From: Escherichia phage slur05
Strand: one strand, 5' to 3'
DNA length: 43,900 bases
Sequence record: NC_028901.1
How positions within the stretch are numbered: the first letter of the stretch is position 1; each line of letters begins with the position of its first letter. Positions 1-34,012 of the stretch are shown one piece after another. The notes beneath the pieces are model-generated. The model was not told the origin of the DNA and ran no database searches. It was given only the letters and a program-made list of their open reading frames with translations. The position numbers and the translations under genes were made by a program.

Positions 1-1192
1 GTTCTCATCCCTGCTGGTCGTAGACGGCACCGGACCGGAGAAGGACCGTATTGCCGCGCTTGAGAGCGACGCTAACGTGGTTTGTGTTAACTACGATGTG
101 GTTGAGTGGCTGGTCGACTATTACGGCGATGCGTGGCCCTTTACGGTCGTTGTTGCCGATGAATCGACTAAGCTGAAAGGCTATCGTAGCAAGCAGGGGA
201 GCAAGCGCGCCCGCGCACTGGCAGCGATTGCACATAAACACGTCAAGCGCTGGATTAACCTGACCGGCACACCAGCGCCAAACGGGCTAAAAGACCTGTG
301 GGGGCAGACGTGGTTTGTCGACGGTGGCGAACGACTCGGCAGTAGTTATAAGGCATTCACCGATCGCTGGTTCATTAGCAAGCCTGTTAAGCCTGGAAGC
401 TTCACGATGCAGCACGCCCCGCTAAAGAACTCCGAGAAAGAAATACAACAACGCCTGTCTGACGTATCACTAACCGTTGACGCGGCTGAATACTTCGGAT
501 GCGACAAGCCAATCTATACGCCGGTTGTTGTGGACCTGCCGAAGAAAGCCCGCAAGATCTACGACCAGTTTGAAAGCGAGCTATTTGCCGAACTGGAAAG
601 CGGAACAGTGGAAGCGGCGAACGCGGCATCGAAGACAATTAAGTGCCTTCAGCTTGCATCCGGGGCCGTGTATAAGGTGGATGAAGACGGCGAACGGACC
701 GACAAGTGGGTGAAGATTCACGACGCGAAGCTGGACGCGCTGGAAAGTATCGTGGAGGAGTTGAACGGTGCGCCGTTGCTCGTTGCGTATCAGTACAAGC
801 ATGACCTGGCACGTCTTAAGAAGAAATTTCCGCACGGCGTTGCGCTGGGTAAAGGTAAGCAGGGCAATAAGGATATGGAAGCGTGGAACAGAGGCGAGAT
901 CCCCATCATGTTTGCGCACCCGGCATCGGCGGGCCACGGCCTTAACTTGCAGGACGGCGGTCATCACCTGGCAATCTTCTCCGATACCTGGAACTTTGAG
1001 CACTTTTCGCAGATCGTTGAACGTATCGGGCCGGTTCGCCAGATGCAAGCAGGACACCCCCGTCCGGTATTCGTCTACATTATCCAGGCGCGCGGAACAC
1101 TGGACGAACTGGTCGCCGAGCGTCGCGACAGTAAGCGGGATATTCAGGACGACTTGATGGAATACATGAAAGCTAAAAAGGCGCGCAAATGA
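1..1192 (+). CDS. SNF2-family helicase, C-terminal part (5' end outside window)
   Basis: Frame is open from base 2 with no upstream stop, so the gene starts before the window. Translation shows SNF2 motifs: VVADEST (DExx box), LTGTPAPNGLKDLW (motif III), GLNLQ and QIVERIGPVRQ (C-terminal helicase motifs). Confidence 0.75.
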   Translation, partial: FSSLLVVDGTGPEKDRIAALESDANVVCVNYDVVEWLVDYYGDAWPFTVVVADESTKLKGYRSKQGSKRARALAAIAHKHVKRWINLTGTPAPNGLKDLWGQTWFVDGGERLGSSYKAFTDRWFISKPVKPGSFTMQHAPLKNSEKEIQQRLSDVSLTVDAAEYFGCDKPIYTPVVVDLPKKARKIYDQFESELFAELESGTVEAANAASKTIKCLQLASGAVYKVDEDGERTDKWVKIHDAKLDALESIVEELNGAPLLVAYQYKHDLARLKKKFPHGVALGKGKQGNKDMEAWNRGEIPIMFAHPASAGHGLNLQDGGHHLAIFSDTWNFEHFSQIVERIGPVRQMQAGHPRPVFVYIIQARGTLDELVAERRDSKRDIQDDLMEYMKAKKARK

Positions 1193-1884
1193 CAATCTGG
1201 TCACTGTTTGACGGCAGCGGCTTGATGATTGAGCGTGCGGCTGAGATGGGGCATAAGTGTTATTGCTTCAACTACTCCGAAGCCGATCACGGGTCTTACC
1301 TTGACTACCGGATTTATGGTCGCGGAATCCGGTATCGCAATGAGTTTATCGATCTGGACTTTGTAGACCGTGCGATGAATGGCGATTTCGGTACGCCAGA
1401 TATCATCTATGCGTTTCCTCCGTGCACGGATCTGGCAGTGAGCGGCGCGCCAGCTTTCCCGCGCAAACGTGCAAAAGACCCCGCCTTTCAGCTTAAGGCG
1501 GTGCGCACCGCGAAGATCGCCGCTTACCTGGGTGACTTCTTCGAAGTGCCATATATGATTGAGAATCCGCGCAGTGTGCTTTCCACCCAGTGGCGCAAGC
1601 CGGATCACTCGTTCGACCCGTGGGAGTATGGGGGGTATCTGCCGGAGGATGACGTACACCCGCTCTTCCCGGAATACATCAACGCCCGCGATTCATATCC
1701 GAAGCTGACTTGCTTATGGACCGGCAACGGCTTCCGTATGCCAGAGAAGAAACCTGTTTTCGTTGAAAAAGGGTACTCGAAACAGTATAGTCGCCTCGGT
1801 GGTAAATCCGCTCGTACAAAATTAATCCGCTCACTCACTCCGCGCGGCTTCGCGATAGCGGTTAACGAGGAAAATTTAAAATGA
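1189..1884 (+). CDS. Mini C5-cytosine methyltransferase-like protein (231 aa)
   Basis: ATG overlaps the helicase stop (ATGA). Ordered C5-MTase-like motifs: LFDGSG (motif I), FPPCTD (PC catalytic motif), IENPR (ENV-like), RSLTPRGFA (motif IX-like). Too short to carry a normal target-recognition domain. Confidence 0.45.
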   Translation: MTIWSLFDGSGLMIERAAEMGHKCYCFNYSEADHGSYLDYRIYGRGIRYRNEFIDLDFVDRAMNGDFGTPDIIYAFPPCTDLAVSGAPAFPRKRAKDPAFQLKAVRTAKIAAYLGDFFEVPYMIENPRSVLSTQWRKPDHSFDPWEYGGYLPEDDVHPLFPEYINARDSYPKLTCLWTGNGFRMPEKKPVFVEKGYSKQYSRLGGKSARTKLIRSLTPRGFAIAVNEENLK

Positions 1885-2204
1885 ACGCTACATACGAAAC
1901 CATCGATTTTTCGGTCGCAATGACTAACCAGCTATTCACCTACGACAGCAAAACCGGAGTCATCCGTCTGAAGTCCGCCGGCTGCAAGATTGGCAACATC
2001 AATACTGCCGACGGCGGAACACGTATCGAATGCAACGGAAAGACGCTGTCTGGCGCACGCGTGGCGTGGATTATTGAGACGGGCAATACAATCCCTCCAG
2101 GCTTCGCCGTTGTGTGCCGCCAGCGCACACCAGGGCACTACGGCAACCGAATCAGCAATCTGTATTTGGTAGACGTTGCACGCGACCCTAACTTTTATGC
2201 GTAA
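1881..2204 (+). CDS. HNH_3/homing-endonuclease-like protein, probably degenerate
   Basis: ATG overlaps the previous stop. Pattern IECNGKTLSGARVAWIIETGNTIPPGFAV...GNRISNLYLV resembles HNH_3 proteins, but the expected DH/HN catalytic residues are replaced. Confidence 0.3.
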   Translation: MNATYETIDFSVAMTNQLFTYDSKTGVIRLKSAGCKIGNINTADGGTRIECNGKTLSGARVAWIIETGNTIPPGFAVVCRQRTPGHYGNRISNLYLVDVARDPNFYA

Positions 2205-14219: not shown

Positions 14220-16862
14220 TCATCGTTTGTAAAGTACACCACCCGGTTTCGTCGCCTTCACGATCTCGGCCTTGACCGACTCGGTGATTTGCTTCCCGAA
14301 CGCCTGCGCGGTGCGCGGGTCTGGTCCGCTAACACTGGTATCCGTCTTACCGGTCCCCATGTTAACGTTGGTCGTTACAATCATCCCCCCGCCTACACCG
14401 GCAGCGGCGACTCCAAGTTTGCCGTCCGGGCCGCGCTTCAGTGGCATGATGGCTTCGGGTCCGGCCTCACCCATCAATCCTGCGCCCTTAGCGAACGCCT
14501 TGACGCCATAACTGAAAAAGGTTGGCTGGCTTACCACCTGCCCCGAATAGGCCGCGAGATTGCCCCCTGCGTACGCTCCGCCGTCCGCATTCTTAGTGAG
14601 GCCGGAGAAGATAGCGCCGAACAATCCGTTTTTGCCGCCGTCGCCACCGAAAGCGCTAACGATGGACTTGAACGCCTGCGAGGTAGCCAGCTTTATTAAT
14701 TCGCTCAGAATGGACTTAACCATATCTTTTGCGTTCAGCTTGCCAGCCTCGAAAAACTCGTTCATCGTGTCCTGCATAGCGCCGAACGTGAATTTTGTGA
14801 GTGACGTCATCTGCGTGTAGCCGCTACCCATTTCATCCACGCTATCCTTAAGCCCGCGGCTGAAGCCATCCCATAGCGAGGCGTTAGCACCGGTCTGTGC
14901 TTCCTGCACTTCGCGCAGCTTAGACACCGCCAGGTCAATATCGGTATCGTTAGCACCAACGCGCTTAAGGCGGTCAATCAGCTGTAATTCTTCGCGCAGG
15001 TTAGCCGCTTCGCGAGTGGAAAGCGCATAGCCCGCCGCGGTGGCTTTTAGCTCGGCGTTCTGGTTCTTAACGAAGGAGTCGATCTGCGCGTGCGCCTTGA
15101 CCTGCTTCTCTTTCGCGTCCAGCAATTTGGCTTCTTCGACGATCTGCTCGCGTACTTCCTTCACGCGTCCGAATTCGACCATCTGCTGCTTTTCTGCTGC
15201 CGTTAGTGCTCTTTCTTTGCTTGCTGCGATTAACTGCTCATTATCCGCGATCAGCTTGTTTAGGGCCGCCTGCGCGCGTTGCGTGCGGGTCTGCGTCGAT
15301 GCGTTGGCTTCGATCTGCTTGCCGGATTCTCGAAGCTGGGCCAGTTCGCTCCGTGCTACTTCCAGCATTTTCAGCCCGGCATCGACTCGAACAGCGGCGG
15401 CCTTCTTCGGGGCGGGGTCTTTGTACCGCTCGTTGACCTGCTTCACCGCCTCGGCAAGCTCTTTCTCGTCAATCACGCCGCGCTTATTAAGCAAATTGAG
15501 GCGGGCGATCTCGTCGGCGCGCCTCTTCGCGTTGGTTGCGTACTCCTTCTCAAACGCGGCGCGGTCGCGGGCGGTGCGGTTTGCCTCTTCGTTCGCCTTT
15601 GCTGCTTCGTCAGCGGCACTTGCGTTGTCTCGCTCTGCACGGTTGCGCAGGGTGAGCGACGCCACTACTTTTTCCTGGGCTACCAGTTCGCTGTAAAGCA
15701 TGTTAATACGCGCTTTCTGCGCTTCGGTCATCACCCCACCGGCAGCGTTTACCGCTTTCATCTCGGCATAGTAAGCCGTGGTCAGTCGCTGCAATGATTC
15801 ACGCGCTTTCATCTCTGACTCATTCGAGGACTGCGCGCGCCCGACATCCAGGATGGCATCCCACATAGATTTAGCTGCCGATATAACGACGTTCATCGAC
15901 CGCTCAAGCGTACCCATGTTGGACTTGATCTCATTGGTCATAGTGGTAAACGACGCTGCGGCTGTTTTGTTAGCCAGCGCCACCGCTTCGGTTTCGCGAC
16001 CAGCCGTCACTAGTGACTGCACCTGCTGGATCTGCGCTTCGTTTACGACGTGATACTTATCCGCCAGCGCACGCAGTCCGCCAACGGGGTCGGTTGACAG
16101 CTTCGCCACCGCCGCCACCACATCCTCGATCGGCTGGCTGGACACCTTCGCAAAGTCATTAACTACCTTAGCCAATGCGCCGAAGTCACCACCCGCTTTC
16201 ACACCCGCCGCCGCCAGCGCCTGGATTGTGTCACGCGTCTTGCGGAATGATCCGCCCATGCGCTCGGCGTTCTCGGATAACACCAGGATCTGGTTTGCAG
16301 TGAGGCCGGAAATGTTACCTGACAGCGCCAGCGTCTTGTTAAGCGCGGCGACCTGGTTCTCTGCGCGGGACGTAATTGCCACGCCCACGCCTAACGTTGC
16401 CGTTACGGCGGCGAGGCCGATCCCTACTGGGCCGAGGAAGCCCGCAACATAACGCAGCGTGTTACCCAGTCCACCGAACGCCCCAGTTAGCTGCGGTAAC
16501 TGCTGAAGCATGACGCGGTGAACCGGCATCCCCATCTCAAGCGTTACCGCAATATCCTGTAGCTGGAATGCGGCGTTACGCGAGGCAAAGCCCAGGTTTT
16601 TAGTCGACATCCCTAACCTGTTGGCGAGTCGCTCCTGTTTAGTCATGCCATCGGCGGCGCGCTGCGATTCGTTTGCCAGCTTTTCCATTCCGCCCGCGGC
16701 GTCACTCGTCACCTTTTTGGATTTGCCGAGGGTGTCGTTTAATTTCTTAACCTTGTTTTCTGTGTTCTCGGATTTCTGTGCGAAGGAGTCCAGCACAGTA
16801 TTTGCCGTTCTGATTTGTGCAACATCAGCCTTTAGCGTGATGCCTGCTGCCTGATCTGCCAT
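14220..16862 (-). CDS. Tail tape measure protein
   Basis: 880 aa, long Ala/Glu/Lys-rich coiled coil and Gly-rich C-terminal region; between chaperone and minor tail genes. Confidence 0.8.
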   Translation of the reverse strand: MADQAAGITLKADVAQIRTANTVLDSFAQKSENTENKVKKLNDTLGKSKKVTSDAAGGMEKLANESQRAADGMTKQERLANRLGMSTKNLGFASRNAAFQLQDIAVTLEMGMPVHRVMLQQLPQLTGAFGGLGNTLRYVAGFLGPVGIGLAAVTATLGVGVAITSRAENQVAALNKTLALSGNISGLTANQILVLSENAERMGGSFRKTRDTIQALAAAGVKAGGDFGALAKVVNDFAKVSSQPIEDVVAAVAKLSTDPVGGLRALADKYHVVNEAQIQQVQSLVTAGRETEAVALANKTAAASFTTMTNEIKSNMGTLERSMNVVISAAKSMWDAILDVGRAQSSNESEMKARESLQRLTTAYYAEMKAVNAAGGVMTEAQKARINMLYSELVAQEKVVASLTLRNRAERDNASAADEAAKANEEANRTARDRAAFEKEYATNAKRRADEIARLNLLNKRGVIDEKELAEAVKQVNERYKDPAPKKAAAVRVDAGLKMLEVARSELAQLRESGKQIEANASTQTRTQRAQAALNKLIADNEQLIAASKERALTAAEKQQMVEFGRVKEVREQIVEEAKLLDAKEKQVKAHAQIDSFVKNQNAELKATAAGYALSTREAANLREELQLIDRLKRVGANDTDIDLAVSKLREVQEAQTGANASLWDGFSRGLKDSVDEMGSGYTQMTSLTKFTFGAMQDTMNEFFEAGKLNAKDMVKSILSELIKLATSQAFKSIVSAFGGDGGKNGLFGAIFSGLTKNADGGAYAGGNLAAYSGQVVSQPTFFSYGVKAFAKGAGLMGEAGPEAIMPLKRGPDGKLGVAAAGVGGGMIVTTNVNMGTGKTDTSVSGPDPRTAQAFGKQITESVKAEIVKATKPGGVLYKR

Positions 16863-16926
16863 TATGCAGTCCCCTTTTTTATGCAGTTGCCGATGGATAT
16901 TGTATCAGCTATTTCAAAACAAACCT

Positions 16927-17246
16927 TATTCAGTCTCAGACGAGGGGGGCCACTGACCCCCGTCTAGTCTGAAAGACTGGGGTGCTGTCCCGCTGTCCCG
17001 ATCGGCTGAAAACCGCGGCAGCACTGGCGGGGACGGGGTGCTGTCCCGCTTTGTCCCGCCTCTTGTTTGTCCCGCTTTCTGTCCCGTTTGTTTTATGCAC
17101 GAAAACCGAATACGTATGCACTTTTGTGGGGTGGGACAAAACGGGACGTCCCGCTTGTCCCGCTTTTTATTATGCAATGGAAGTGAGTAGGTATGCAGTT
17201 TCACAGGGGTGGGACAAAACGGGACGTCCCGCCTGTCCCGCTTCAT
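16927..17246. repeat. Structured non-coding repeat element, copy A: hairpin, GTCCCGC iterons and two GGGACGTCCC palindromes
   Basis: Core 16927-17100 is ~85% identical to 33700-33870; bulged stem-loop AGACGAGGGGGGCC...CCCCCGTCT, at least 6 GTCCCGC iterons, sub-repeat GGGTGGGACAAAACGGGACGTCCCGCNTGTCCCGCTT at 17127-17167 and 17207-17245. Confidence 0.8.
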
Positions 17247-17937
17247 TATGCGGGGTTCTGCTGCGCCATCTCATCAAGCGCGATTCGTTCCATTAGCTTG
17301 ATATCTTTAAACGCACGCTGCTCGTTTTCGATACCGTGCATCTTAAATAACCACTCCAGCACGCCGTAGTCGATGCCGTATGCGCCACCAAATCCGGTGC
17401 GCCATTGCGTGGCGCAATCTGTGAAGACTGCGACTATCTTCGCGTTGTCAGGCCACAGCGCAACAGGTGGACAAACATCTTCGGGGGCCGCACCCCATAA
17501 ACTTGCGGCTAAATCTTCGGAGGGTGGCGGCGGGCCATAAAAGCGTCGCGCCGCCTCAATTAGTTTTTTTCACGCAACCCCATCAGTTCGAGATAGTACG
17601 ACGTGTGGAACACACCGAACGCGCGTGGATAGTTGACCACCAGGCGGCGGACGTTCTCCGCGTTAAATTCGTCCGGCAGATTCCAGCCTTCTGCGACGTG
17701 CATGATGGCCTCGACCATAACGTTAAAGCCGTCCGGGTCATTGTCGTCATATTCCGACAACTTGCGTTCGGTGTCCTGCATGGTCTGCGAAAATTCGTCG
17801 ATAGGGCGGTGGCGGACGGTGAAAGTCATCTTCCCCGGCTCGTTCTCACCAGGGCGCGGGATCTCAATCGGCAGCTTAAAGGTCGGCTTAGGGTCAAGTG
17901 TAAATAGTGGTGCTTTAGCCATTGTAGTATTCTCCAA
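17247..17937 (-). CDS. Tail assembly chaperone G-T fusion made by -1 frameshift
   Basis: Minus-strand heptamer A_AAA_AAC (plus 17563-17569) at the end of the G-like ORF; the -1 frame stays open for ~105 codons (LIEAARRFYGPPPPSEDL...QQNPA) to a stop at 17247-17249. Confidence 0.6.
17560..17922 (-). CDS. Tail assembly chaperone (lambda G-like)
   Basis: Start refined to MAKAPLF with GGAGA RBS; acidic ~120 aa protein; ends at slippery heptamer A AAA AAC next to its stop codon. Confidence 0.65.
   Translation of the reverse strand: MAKAPLFTLDPKPTFKLPIEIPRPGENEPGKMTFTVRHRPIDEFSQTMQDTERKLSEYDDNDPDGFNVMVEAIMHVAEGWNLPDEFNAENVRRLVVNYPRAFGVFHTSYYLELMGLREKN
17563..17569 (-). other. Programmed -1 ribosomal frameshift site (A AAA AAC) for the G-T chaperone
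   Basis: Slippery heptamer in the last codons of the G-like ORF with an open -1 frame downstream (17247-17562). Confidence 0.6.
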
Positions 17938-17961
17938 TAAAAAAGGGGCCGTGCTGGCCCC
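17938..17961 (-). terminator. Rho-independent terminator/attenuator between major tail and chaperone genes
   Basis: Stem GGGGCC/GGCCCC with loop GTGCT, followed on the minus strand by a T6-7 tract. Confidence 0.6.
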
Positions 17962-17991
17962 ATATTATCACTCGCTATTTAAGCGACCAAA

Positions 17992-18717
17992 TCAAGACAA
18001 TGCCTCGACCAGATCCTTACGGTAGATAACCATATCAGACTGCATGGTCAGAGTGGATTGTACCGTTTCCACGTTGTTTACTTCAGCGGACGGAATCTTC
18101 TGGAAAGATACCTTAGCTGGGTAAATACGAATCTCACCTTTGCCGCTTGCTGCCGCTGGGTTAGTGAACTTAATCACAGTGGTTTTCTGTGTGTCGTCCA
18201 GGTCTTCCAGGATTGGGCGGATCGGGTCTTCTTCGTCGTGGGTGAAGGTGTAAGTCTGTACCAACGGGTTTTTCGTGGTGTTCAGACTGATCGCGGTATT
18301 CACCTGCAACGGCTGGAAGGTGGTGGTCTGCTGGTCGCCACCCGACACTGCAACGTTAGTGATAAACGGGAAGTCGATAAAGCTCGACACCTTCACCACT
18401 TCGCCCGGCGTGCCTACGCCGAAAGCGCCGGTAGGGTATTTTGTGACGTCTTGAGTATCGAAGCGCGCCAGCGTCACGTAGTTAGTATCCACTTTACCCA
18501 CGATGAACGCGCGGTTAAGCGCTCGGACCCACGGGGTTTTAGTGAACATAACAACGTCGCCAACAACCAGACCATGCGAAGCCGCGCAGGTAATTACGCA
18601 ACCTTGCGTAAGGTCTGAGATCGACGCGGCGGCGTTGGTAGCTGCCGTAACCGCGATGCCGCTGCCTAATACGGACCCGATCTGGACGCTGGACCCGTTG
18701 GGAAGTTGATAACCCAT
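17992..18717 (-). CDS. Major tail protein
   Basis: 241 aa upstream of the chaperone gene, with strong terminator 17938-17961 downstream. Confidence 0.65.
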   Translation of the reverse strand: MGYQLPNGSSVQIGSVLGSGIAVTAATNAAASISDLTQGCVITCAASHGLVVGDVVMFTKTPWVRALNRAFIVGKVDTNYVTLARFDTQDVTKYPTGAFGVGTPGEVVKVSSFIDFPFITNVAVSGGDQQTTTFQPLQVNTAISLNTTKNPLVQTYTFTHDEEDPIRPILEDLDDTQKTTVIKFTNPAAASGKGEIRIYPAKVSFQKIPSAEVNNVETVQSTLTMQSDMVIYRKDLVEALS

Positions 18718-33478: not shown

Positions 33479-33699
33479 TGTTCAGTCCTCATGTTGGGGT
33501 GCAACCAATATAGCAAGGTGCCAGGCGGAACGCAACCAATATTAATCACGCGCATGAAAAAGTTGATCGCTATCTGCTGTGACTGCAAACCGCATTTTTC
33601 ACTTCGCATAATGCAACTCGCATTGGTTGCCTAGTTCATCCGCGACCGCACTTCGCATCATGCTGCCGTGTATTTTGCAATCCCCGGATTTTATTCAGT

Positions 33700-33870
33700 C
33701 TCAGACGAGGGGGGCCGCTGACCCCCGTCTAGTCTGAAAGACTGGGGGTTGTCCCGCCTGTCCCGCTCCTCTCCAGGCCGCGCCATACGGGGCGGGACGG
33801 GGGTGCTGTCCCGCTTTGTCCCGCCCCTTGTTTGTCCCGCTTTCTGTCCCGCTTACTTTATGCAATAAAA
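33700..33870. repeat. Structured non-coding repeat element, copy B
   Basis: Same hairpin and GTCCCGC iteron series as copy A, with inverted GGGAC...GTCCC pairs; lies in the 533 bp non-coding region beside the primase-helicase gene. Confidence 0.8.
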
Positions 33871-33973
33871 CTGCATAACTATTCATTATATTTACACTAC
33901 ACGGCAACCAATACGACCCGATAAAAACACTCAAAATGGCAACCAATGCGCGCAAAATTTAACCTTTTAGCGA

Positions 33974-33989
33974 TATGGGAATTCCCATA
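33974..33989. promoter_or_regulatory. Perfect 16 bp palindrome TATGGGAATTCCCATA flanked by direct repeats
   Basis: Self-complementary 16-mer; GGCAACCAATGCGCGCA occurs on both sides (33938-33954 and 33992-34008); just 3' of the primase-helicase gene. Confidence 0.5.
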
Positions 33990-34012
33990 CCGGCAACCAA
34001 TGCGCGCAGGAT

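Follow-up and report, generated by a model that had tools for sequence, protein, structure and literature searches.

A predicted −1 ribosomal frameshift of the G/GT type in the tail assembly chaperone genes of Escherichia phage slur05

Phages of the G/GT class produce a tail assembly protein G together with an extended form GT at a fixed low GT:G ratio, and both proteins are needed for tail assembly and are absent from virions. Frameshifting of the G-T genes is widely conserved in long-tailed phages (PMC5009743). For Escherichia phage slur05 (NC_028901.1) an earlier note had proposed a −1 frameshift of this lambda-like type at positions 17247-17937, together with a separation of the chaperone from the tape measure gene. 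Does this locus encode a G-T fusion protein, and what stands between the chaperone and the tape measure gene? The locus was analyzed within the whole stretch of 43,900 nucleotides, which is called the window here. The comparison with related phages makes it very probable that ribosomes undergo a programmed −1 shift of the G/GT type at the heptamer A_AAA_AAC.

The structural and tail genes of the window are located on the minus strand. Tail terminator (PF13554), tail tube (PF08813), G, T, a gap of 383 nt and the tape measure gene (PF06791) follow each other in this order. With tube, G, T and tape measure in order on one strand, the assignment to a tail module made in the earlier note was borne out. 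The surroundings of the chaperone pair contain the following features:

17992..18717, minus strand: gene of the tail tube (major tail) protein, directly 5' of G (Pfam PF08813 Phage_tail_3, E 2.7e-32)
17935..17961, minus strand: terminator-like GC hairpin (17961..17945) with T-run in the interval between tube gene and G (consensus scan)
17930..17935, minus strand: Shine-Dalgarno-like GGAGAA, 7 nt 5' of the G start codon (read from the sequence)
14220..16862, minus strand: gene of the tape measure protein, 880 aa (Pfam PF06791 TMP_2, E 2.3e-43; PF09718, E 1.4e-11)

The counterpart of the hairpin site between tube gene and G is annotated as a putative terminator in the record of phage WFI. The 1.2 kb around the slip site are 100% identical to Escherichia phage slur06 (LN881731.1) and share 81-98% identity with 157 phage records, practically all of which belong to Dhillonvirus.

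Two overlapping reading frames lie between the tail tube gene and the gap:

17560..17922, minus strand: G, tail assembly chaperone open reading frame of 120 aa, ATG at 17922, TAA at 17562..17560 (Pfam, PHROGs)
17246..17563, minus strand: T, extension in the −1 frame with 105 sense codons (17563..17249) and TAA at 17248..17246 (Pfam, PHROGs)
17246..17922, minus strand: GT fusion product of 225 aa, predicted from the reading frames

G matched the Pfam family PF08748 (Phage_TAC_4) with an E-value of 1.4e-23 and 83.9 bits (cut-off 21.1) at profile positions 1-124 of 124. T matched PF08809 (DUF1799) with an E-value of 6.8e-21 and 74.7 bits (cut-off 26) at profile positions 1-80 of 80. Both scores exceed Pfam's curated gathering thresholds, and each match covers the whole domain. 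In PHROGs, G belongs to phrog_569 (E 9.8e-41) and T to phrog_680 (E 3.5e-30), which places both halves in tail families. A further family of 213 positions, phrog_17368, aligned with G at profile positions 1-107 and with T at 150-212. Since this family spans both halves, fused homologues exist in the databases. A sequence search of the PDB revealed no relative. The likely start codon of G is the ATG at 17922, which is preceded by GGAGAA 7 nt upstream; the TTG at 17937 merely opens the mechanical open reading frame. The GT stop codon ends at 17246 and is directly followed by a second TAA. Consequently, the boundaries proposed before have to be moved slightly, from 17247 to 17246 at the GT stop and probably from 17937 to 17922 at the start of G.

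The junction of the two frames is defined by two elements:

17563..17569, minus strand: slippery heptamer A_AAA_AAC in phase with G (read from the sequence; kept in relatives)
17570..17572, minus strand: −1 frame stop codon TGA, adjoining the heptamer on its 5' side (−1 frame translation)

In the 0-frame G ends with ...CGT GAA AAA AAC TAA, so that its stop codon TAA (17562..17560) lies directly 3' of A_AAA_AAC. The −1 frame reads GCG TGA AAA AAA CTA ATT... at the same place. The heptamer that had been reported at the end of the G-like open reading frame is indeed present at 17569..17563, followed by TAA, and the reported opening of about 105 codons in the −1 frame amounts to exactly 105 sense codons counted from 17563. 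The two frames overlap at the heptamer only (7 nt). Because of this and of the −1 TGA directly upstream, a productive shift is possible nowhere but at the heptamer.

Most ribosomes would produce the 120-aa G and terminate at the TAA adjoining A_AAA_AAC. A small fraction would slip back by one base on the heptamer, either by re-pairing of tRNA-Lys and tRNA-Asn from AAA-AAC to AAA-AAA or by slippage of tRNA-Asn in the P site while the stop codon occupies the A site. The shifted ribosomes would read CUA and go on for 105 codons to the 225-aa G-T fusion with the C-terminal DUF1799 as its T domain. The predicted junction is ...REKN-LIEAAR after a tandem or Asn-tRNA slip and ...REKK-LIEAAR after a slip of Lys-tRNA only. 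If lambda is taken as a model, the tape measure protein would carry a coat of G and of the G part of GT, and T would recruit the tail tube protein. We infer the slippage itself, its efficiency, the roles of hairpin and stop codon and the functions of the proteins from the sequence and its comparison with relatives. The low GT:G ratio would be set by an intrinsically weak heptamer and may be tuned by the adjacent stop codon and a downstream GC hairpin. A stop codon of G directly after the heptamer is an invariable trait of this chaperone family, and it could serve as a pause that favors slippage of the P-site tRNA-Asn. In E. coli, A_AAA_AAC as well as G_GGA_AAC are low-efficiency −1 motifs that are still used for programmed frameshifting, and IS1 is the proven case for A_AAA_AAC (PMC4066793). 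The molar ratio of G to GT in lambda is approximately 30:1 (PMC5009743). A weak motif fits a chaperone pair whose long form must be rare. On the other side, so inefficient a heptamer may yield very little GT in E. coli.

In order to judge the site within its own genome the window was scanned for in-phase X_XXY_YYZ heptamers near the end of an open reading frame of at least 80 codons that are followed by at least 80 open codons in the −1 frame. The scan returned the G/T site and three trivial others, two of them at the ordinary ATGA gene junction at 1872-1881 and one in an antisense open reading frame. Mononucleotide shuffles gave a mean of 0.26 hits per shuffled window. The evidence from one genome alone is only modest, and the comparative data are decisive.

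A tblastn search with the conceptual fusion matched 1160 phage records, 756 of which cover at least 80% of the query. Among the matches listed, the well-covered records align in two frame-shifted pieces. Most of the matches are T1-like Drexlerviridae and Klebsiella Webervirus; phages of Ralstonia, Pseudomonas, Aeromonas and Vibrio were found as well. All Dhillonvirus loci carry the identical heptamer A_AAA_AAC, as do 35 of 37 remote loci, whose T is approximately 33-39% identical. An in-phase A_AAA_AAC with an adjacent 0-frame stop codon was observed in 49 of the 51 IMG/VR loci that encode a T relative. Two loci deviate: L053 is cut off by the end of its contig, and L051 is complete but has no in-phase heptamer in the overlap. 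Aeromonas phage pAEv1818 also possesses an in-phase A_AAA_AAC with a stop codon and has a 15-nt context (CGTGAAAAAAACTAA) in common with the window. In Ralstonia phage YO374_2, Pseudomonas phage PS-1 and Vibrio phage Marilyn the same place is taken by G_GGA_AAC, directly followed by TGA or TAG. The layout of the window recurs identically in all 157 Dhillonvirus records and in 25 independent assemblies from metagenomes or IMG/VR; in distant families, too, the heptamer is flanked by a −1 TGA and a 0-frame stop codon. A −1 frame lacking conservation in related phages had been named in the earlier note as the finding that would speak against the frameshift. This point was examined, and the frame is conserved as far as the T1-like and the metagenomic relatives.

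The same fusion could in principle arise during transcription. Seven consecutive A residues (GAAAAAAAC) are present at the site in the window and in all Dhillonvirus loci; a polymerase stuttering on this run would add one A to some of the mRNAs and create the junction ...REKK-LIEAA. Transcriptional slippage on A/T runs is a known bacterial route to the same outcome (PMC5009743). However, A residues at the homologous site number only six in some other lineages (AGAGAAAAAAC, GTAAAAAAC) and three in others (G_GGA_AAC), and all of these sites keep X_XXY_YYZ in phase with G, which is needed for ribosomal tandem slippage only. For efficient slippage the E. coli polymerase as a rule requires longer runs, of approximately nine residues or more. 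Since the G_GGA_AAC sites keep the phase without a long homopolymer, they argue for tandem slippage of the ribosome, and stuttering of the polymerase is quite improbable.

Selection on the −1 frame was followed among 17 Dhillonvirus sequences. The split of variable sites over the three codon positions is 10/6/74 within G. Beyond the slip site it becomes 22/9/68 in the −1 frame, corresponding to 9/68/22 when read in the frame of G. This switch of the third-position pattern to the −1 frame indicates purifying selection on that frame from its very first codons. The first approximately 67 codons of the −1 open reading frame, which precede its first possible start codon, likewise vary mainly at third positions. 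These codons also bear on the proposal that no recoding takes place, with T translated from an internal start as a 38-aa GTG open reading frame or with the upstream −1 open reading frame left untranslated. Several GenBank records do annotate short independent open reading frames in the T stretch, but the annotated starts disagree between records. Most of the DUF1799 domain (residues 23-99 of the 105) lies upstream of the internal start, its match beginning approximately 45 codons 5' of the first possible start codon, and the whole −1 open reading frame is kept together with the heptamer in remote relatives. This proposal is very improbable. The window's own list of open reading frames contains none of at least 40 aa that ends at 17246. 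A sequencing error or a recent frameshift mutation in a single G-T gene with a coincidental heptamer could be suspected because homopolymer runs are error-prone in sequencing and three other combinations of heptamer and open frame occur in the window by chance, but this reading is effectively refuted by the identical layout in 157 Dhillonvirus records, 25 independent assemblies and distant families, with the heptamer flanked by −1 TGA and 0-frame TAA every time.

The programmed ribosomal frameshift can be compared with known systems. Between tail tube gene and tape measure gene the window contains two open reading frames on the same strand. The second is read in the −1 frame, shares 7 nt with the first and lacks a start codon or RBS of its own close to its 5' end. 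A canonical in-phase X_XXY_YYZ heptamer is located inside the overlap, and slip site and both frames are conserved in diverged relatives. T does not directly adjoin the tape measure gene, an adjacency that is typical synteny and not strictly defining. Judged by its sequence features, the system is a G/GT frameshift of the class of Xu, Hendrix and Duda, with tape measure adjacency as the only feature lacking.

One of the closest described counterparts is the pair of genes 045/046 of the T1-like phage U136B (Drexlerviridae). It shows approximately 39% identity over GT residues 1-223 in two frame-shifted pieces and lies, as in the window, between the tail tube and tape measure genes. It also shares A_AAA_AAC followed by TAA (GTA AAA AAC TAA), a −1 extension of approximately 105 codons and a hairpin 7 nt downstream. 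In contrast to the window, where the GT stop codon and the tape measure start are 383 nt apart, U136B has only approximately 23 nt between them, and its frames overlap by 73 nt instead of 7 nt. Its record describes the pair as a joined 'tape measure chaperone frameshift product', whereas no such entry stands in the Dhillonvirus records examined. The T part of the window is homologous to the T of such T1-like products. Thus, the lambda-like G/G-T frameshift proposed before is supported by the Phage_TAC_4 and DUF1799 matches, by the conserved site and by the joined annotation in U136B.

The slip site of lambda is G_GGA_AAG, in contrast to A_AAA_AAC in the window. In lambda T directly precedes H, whereas a non-coding cassette of 383 nt is inserted in the window; moreover, the G stop codon of the window directly abuts the heptamer, unlike that of lambda. 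Both have the pair at the same gene position, shift by −1 close to where G ends and add a T extension of comparable size (PMC5009743). Lambda gpG/gpGT was studied by Levin, Hendrix & Casjens 1993 and by Xu, Hendrix & Duda 2004, 2013 and 2014 (summarised in PMC5009743). Its logic, in which G is abundant and a rare GT bridges tape measure and tube proteins, is presumably shared by the window (PMC5009743). The Pfam families of lambda gpG and gpT gave no match to G, T or the fusion at E-values up to 0.1; only PF08748 and PF08809 were reported. The comparison with lambda drawn in the earlier note therefore holds for the arrangement and fails for the protein families. In terms of sequence families the pair is an analogue or a distant relative of lambda G-T and not a member of the same family.

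Two non-phage systems resemble the slip site. IS1 insA-insB' has the same A_AAA_AAC, the same host E. coli and a rare fusion from a proven frameshift of low efficiency (PMC4066793). In contrast, its protein is an unrelated transposase and no stimulator is established, whereas the window possesses the adjacent stop codon and a candidate hairpin. E. coli dnaX (gamma/tau) shares an A-rich heptamer read by a single tRNA-Lys and a downstream stem-loop stimulator; the SD-like GGGAG upstream of the heptamer in metagenomic relatives adds a further likeness (PMC5009743). In dnaX, by contrast, the heptamer is A_AAA_AAG, which is highly efficient, and the product is a shorter one; the window has no conserved SD-like element.

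One candidate stimulator is located downstream of the slip site:

17526..17555, minus strand: candidate stimulatory hairpin, 7 nt 3' of the heptamer (RNAfold)

Its 5' arm GGCGGCG (17555..17549) and its 3' arm CGCCGCC (17532..17526) enclose a loop of 16 nt and form a GC stem of 7 bp. Among 26 unique Dhillonvirus sequences with pairwise identities of 81-100%, 70% of the third positions in the 222 codons of G-T vary. This variability is lowest at the slip site and the next 12 codons, where 2 of 12 vary. Several lineages form hairpins 7-8 nt downstream, each from different codons: EAA..PPP in the window, AA..GGG in metagenomic relatives and others in U136B and Marilyn. The hairpin of the metagenomic clade (GCCGCCG/CGGCGGC) has 93.9% of its cells paired and two pairs with compensatory changes. 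U136B has GGCGGUU/AACCGCC 7 nt downstream, and the hairpin of Vibrio phage Marilyn reaches −21.3 kcal/mol. The first 16 T codons were recoded synonymously with local codon usage. The natural structure was rarely matched by the recoded sequences for U136B (p 0.0005), Marilyn (0/2000) and the loci L022 (p 0.019) and L050 (p 0.012). No significance was obtained for the window (p 0.18), pAEv1818 (p 0.16) and the locus L086 (p 0.28); the hairpin of the window is no stronger than amino acid sequence and codon usage predict. The fold energy of the 111 nt around the site was no better than that of shuffles (z 0.04), and a convincing hairpin was not found in some T1-like relatives (Braunvirinae). When all 34 unique slip-site regions were given to RNAalifold together, no common structure resulted, since the register of the 3' arm differs from lineage to lineage; each lineage was then analyzed by itself. 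An Rfam search of 16700-18000 returned nothing relevant (best E-values 0.12 and 1, far below the gathering scores). The GC hairpin of the window is a plausible candidate for a modulator of the frameshift. An upstream SD-like stimulator was rejected for the Dhillonviruses, as the 5' Gly codon varies between GGA, GGC and GGG. In the metagenomic clade GGGAGC is kept invariant upstream of the heptamer, where an SD-like stimulator is possible.

A joined GT coding sequence is annotated in none of the six Dhillonvirus records examined, slur06 included. In these six records G is called 'hypothetical' or 'tail assembly chaperone', and T is omitted or replaced by arbitrary short open reading frames. The record of phage JLBYU37 contains only a 38-aa GTG open reading frame as 'DUF1799 domain-containing protein'. 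A literature search for a chaperone frameshift in Dhillonvirus or HK578 found nothing pertinent. The Dhillonvirus frameshift is an unannotated instance of the well-known G/GT type, ordinary and unsurprising to a specialist. Its description corrects an annotation gap in the Dhillonvirus records and brings one more genus under the rule that long-tailed phages keep the G/GT frameshift. Throughout the Phage_TAC_4 and DUF1799 family (Dhillonvirus, T1-like, Aeromonas, Ralstonia, Pseudomonas, Vibrio and uncultured phages) the same compact signal is found, X_XXA_AAC directly followed by the G stop codon, with heptamers that are weak in E. coli, as suits a chaperone pair requiring little GT. Only one point is mildly unusual, namely that this signal is unchanged though a repeat-rich non-coding cassette uncouples the chaperone from the tape measure gene. 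This cassette, and not the frameshift, is the more interesting object:

16863..17245, minus strand: non-coding spacer of 383 nt from the GT stop codon to the tape measure ATG, with repeats, hairpin, −10 element and SD

The gap measures 357-406 nt in 13 Dhillonvirus loci. The claimed separation of the chaperone from the tape measure gene is thus real, with 383 nt in the window versus 1-9 nt in 33 of 35 measurable remote loci; the two others (L050 and L051) overlap the tape measure open reading frame by 1 and 11 nt. The gap of pAEv1818 is 39 nt, and Pseudomonas phage PS-1 forms another exception with genes inserted at this position. The spacer contains 16 GGGAC/GTCCC pentamers versus 0.55 expected. 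It further includes a pair of 78-nt direct repeats, each carrying the palindrome GGGACAAAACGGGAC/GTCCCGCTTGTCCC, and a 48-nt hairpin at 16975..16928 (−36.5 kcal/mol for the 91-nt context, z −3.2). An invariant extended −10 element TGATACAAT (16907..16899) is located upstream of the tape measure SD. The spacer sequence was found only in the 157 Dhillonvirus records. An open reading frame of 106 codons in the gap (17246..16926), whose ATG overlaps the T stop codon, was rejected as a gene because the length of the gap (380-406 nt) changes among relatives by amounts not divisible by 3 and its longest open stretch covers anything from 59 to 105 codons.

The cassette may consist of an array of regulator-binding sites, a hairpin for termination or processing and a promoter; it may also be a signal for packaging. 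One tentative reading, which we consider rather doubtful, is that in Dhillonvirus the 16 GGGAC/GTCCC pentamers, two putative palindromic operators, hairpin and promoter split the almost universal block of G, GT and tape measure. The tape measure gene would then be transcribed or regulated apart from the chaperones; the frameshift signal alone, with weak heptamer, adjoining stop codon and hairpin, would fix G:GT, and the cassette would fix the ratio of chaperone to tape measure. Alternatively, the cassette would act as a regulator-binding array or in pac recognition. If the tentative reading is true, tail-length determination needs no cis-coupled expression of chaperone and tape measure.

Approximately 205 nt of the spacer are duplicated at 33695-33870, behind the gene of a 754-aa AAA_25 protein. 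Seven contigs of nearly full length, from metagenomes or IMG/VR, terminate within the spacer, which suggested that the physical ends of the genome might lie there. Dhillonvirus is reported to package by a headful/pac mechanism with permuted genomes (PMC10059673). The spacer was therefore judged unlikely to represent physical genome ends, and the contig ends are read as assembly breaks at the duplicated repeat.

The spacer between the GT stop codon and the tape measure gene contains 16 GGGAC/GTCCC pentamers, compared with 0.55 expected. It also holds two direct repeats of 78 nt each, both of which include the palindrome GGGACAAAACGGGAC|GTCCCGCTTGTCCC. Conservation reaches 94% in the motif columns versus 86% in the spacer columns separating the motifs. 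The GGGAC/GTCCC motifs look like an array of protein-binding sites. The spacer and its second copy are located as follows.

16863-17245, minus strand: non-coding, Dhillonvirus-specific spacer separating GT from the tape measure gene
33695-33870, same orientation: second copy of part of the spacer, ~205 nt, ~90% identical
16928-16975, minus strand, with a copy at ~33693-33740: long conserved hairpin CAGUCUUUCAGACUAGACGGGGGUCAGUGGCCCCCCUCGUCUGAGACUG

The second copy corresponds to the promoter-proximal half of the spacer, contains both the GGGAC repeats and the large hairpin, and lies just downstream of a gene encoding a 754-aa AAA_25 (helicase/primase-like) protein. Most Dhillonvirus records contain 2-3 places matching the spacer. 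The fold energy of the hairpin is -36.5 kcal/mol in a 91-nt context (z -3.2). A canonical U-tract was absent directly 3' of it. Therefore, the hairpin could represent a variant form of terminator, a site of RNA processing or an element that acts at the DNA level.

Seven independent contigs of ~44 kb from metagenomes or IMG/VR (L013, L059, L062, L064, L065, L066 and L067) end within this spacer, 16-304 nt past the T stop codon. Dhillonvirus genomes are reported to be permuted and packaged by a headful (pac) mechanism (PMC10059673). These ends probably arose where the assembly of a permuted headful genome broke at the duplicated repeat; a packaging-related end is a possible alternative.

The 9-mer GCAACCAAT was found 15 times in the window, compared with 0.45 expected occurrences. 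Six copies cluster in the intergenic region at 33.5-34.0 kb (33501-34001), which adjoins the second GGGAC cassette, and the scattered sites are at 2205, 2222, 3880, 6822, 22821, 22834, 33061, 36808 and 43649. This 9-mer may represent a promoter motif or an iteron.

Putative transcription signals were located on both sides of the chaperone genes.

16899-16907, minus strand: extended -10-like element TGATACAAT, ~35 nt 5' of the Shine-Dalgarno sequence and ATG of the tape measure gene
17935-17961, minus strand: terminator-like hairpin GGGGCCAGCACGGCCCC + TTTTTTATT, downstream of the tail tube gene and upstream of G, found by the consensus scan

The extended -10-like element is invariant in 17 relatives, which suggests that the tape measure gene is transcribed from a promoter of its own. 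The consensus scan of the window did not report this element because a -35 hexamer is absent. The hairpin upstream of G has the canonical form of an intrinsic terminator, and its equivalent in the record of phage WFI is annotated as a putative terminator. This putative terminator could lower the expression of G/GT relative to that of the tube protein.

In a remote clade of metagenomic relatives (L017-L050) a Shine-Dalgarno-like GGGAGC is located 7 nt 5' of the heptamer. It encodes Gly-Ala with essentially invariant third positions and is reminiscent of the upstream stimulator of dnaX. Dhillonviruses lack this SD-like GGGAGC upstream of the heptamer. Pseudomonas phage PS-1 (L089, AP014684.1 33232-35433) carries a G/GT pair with G_GGA_AAC and TAG. 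As in the window phage, its tape measure gene does not directly follow G/GT. The pair is followed instead by an ORF on the reverse strand, a small ORF and a gene for an antirepressor.

As a chance control for the frameshift-site scan, two in-phase heptamers were considered.

1872-1881, plus strand: AAATTTA and TTTAAAA where ORFs 1189..1884 and 1881..2204 meet

Since the downstream ORF 1881..2204 has its own ATG within an ATGA overlap, this is an ordinary gene junction.
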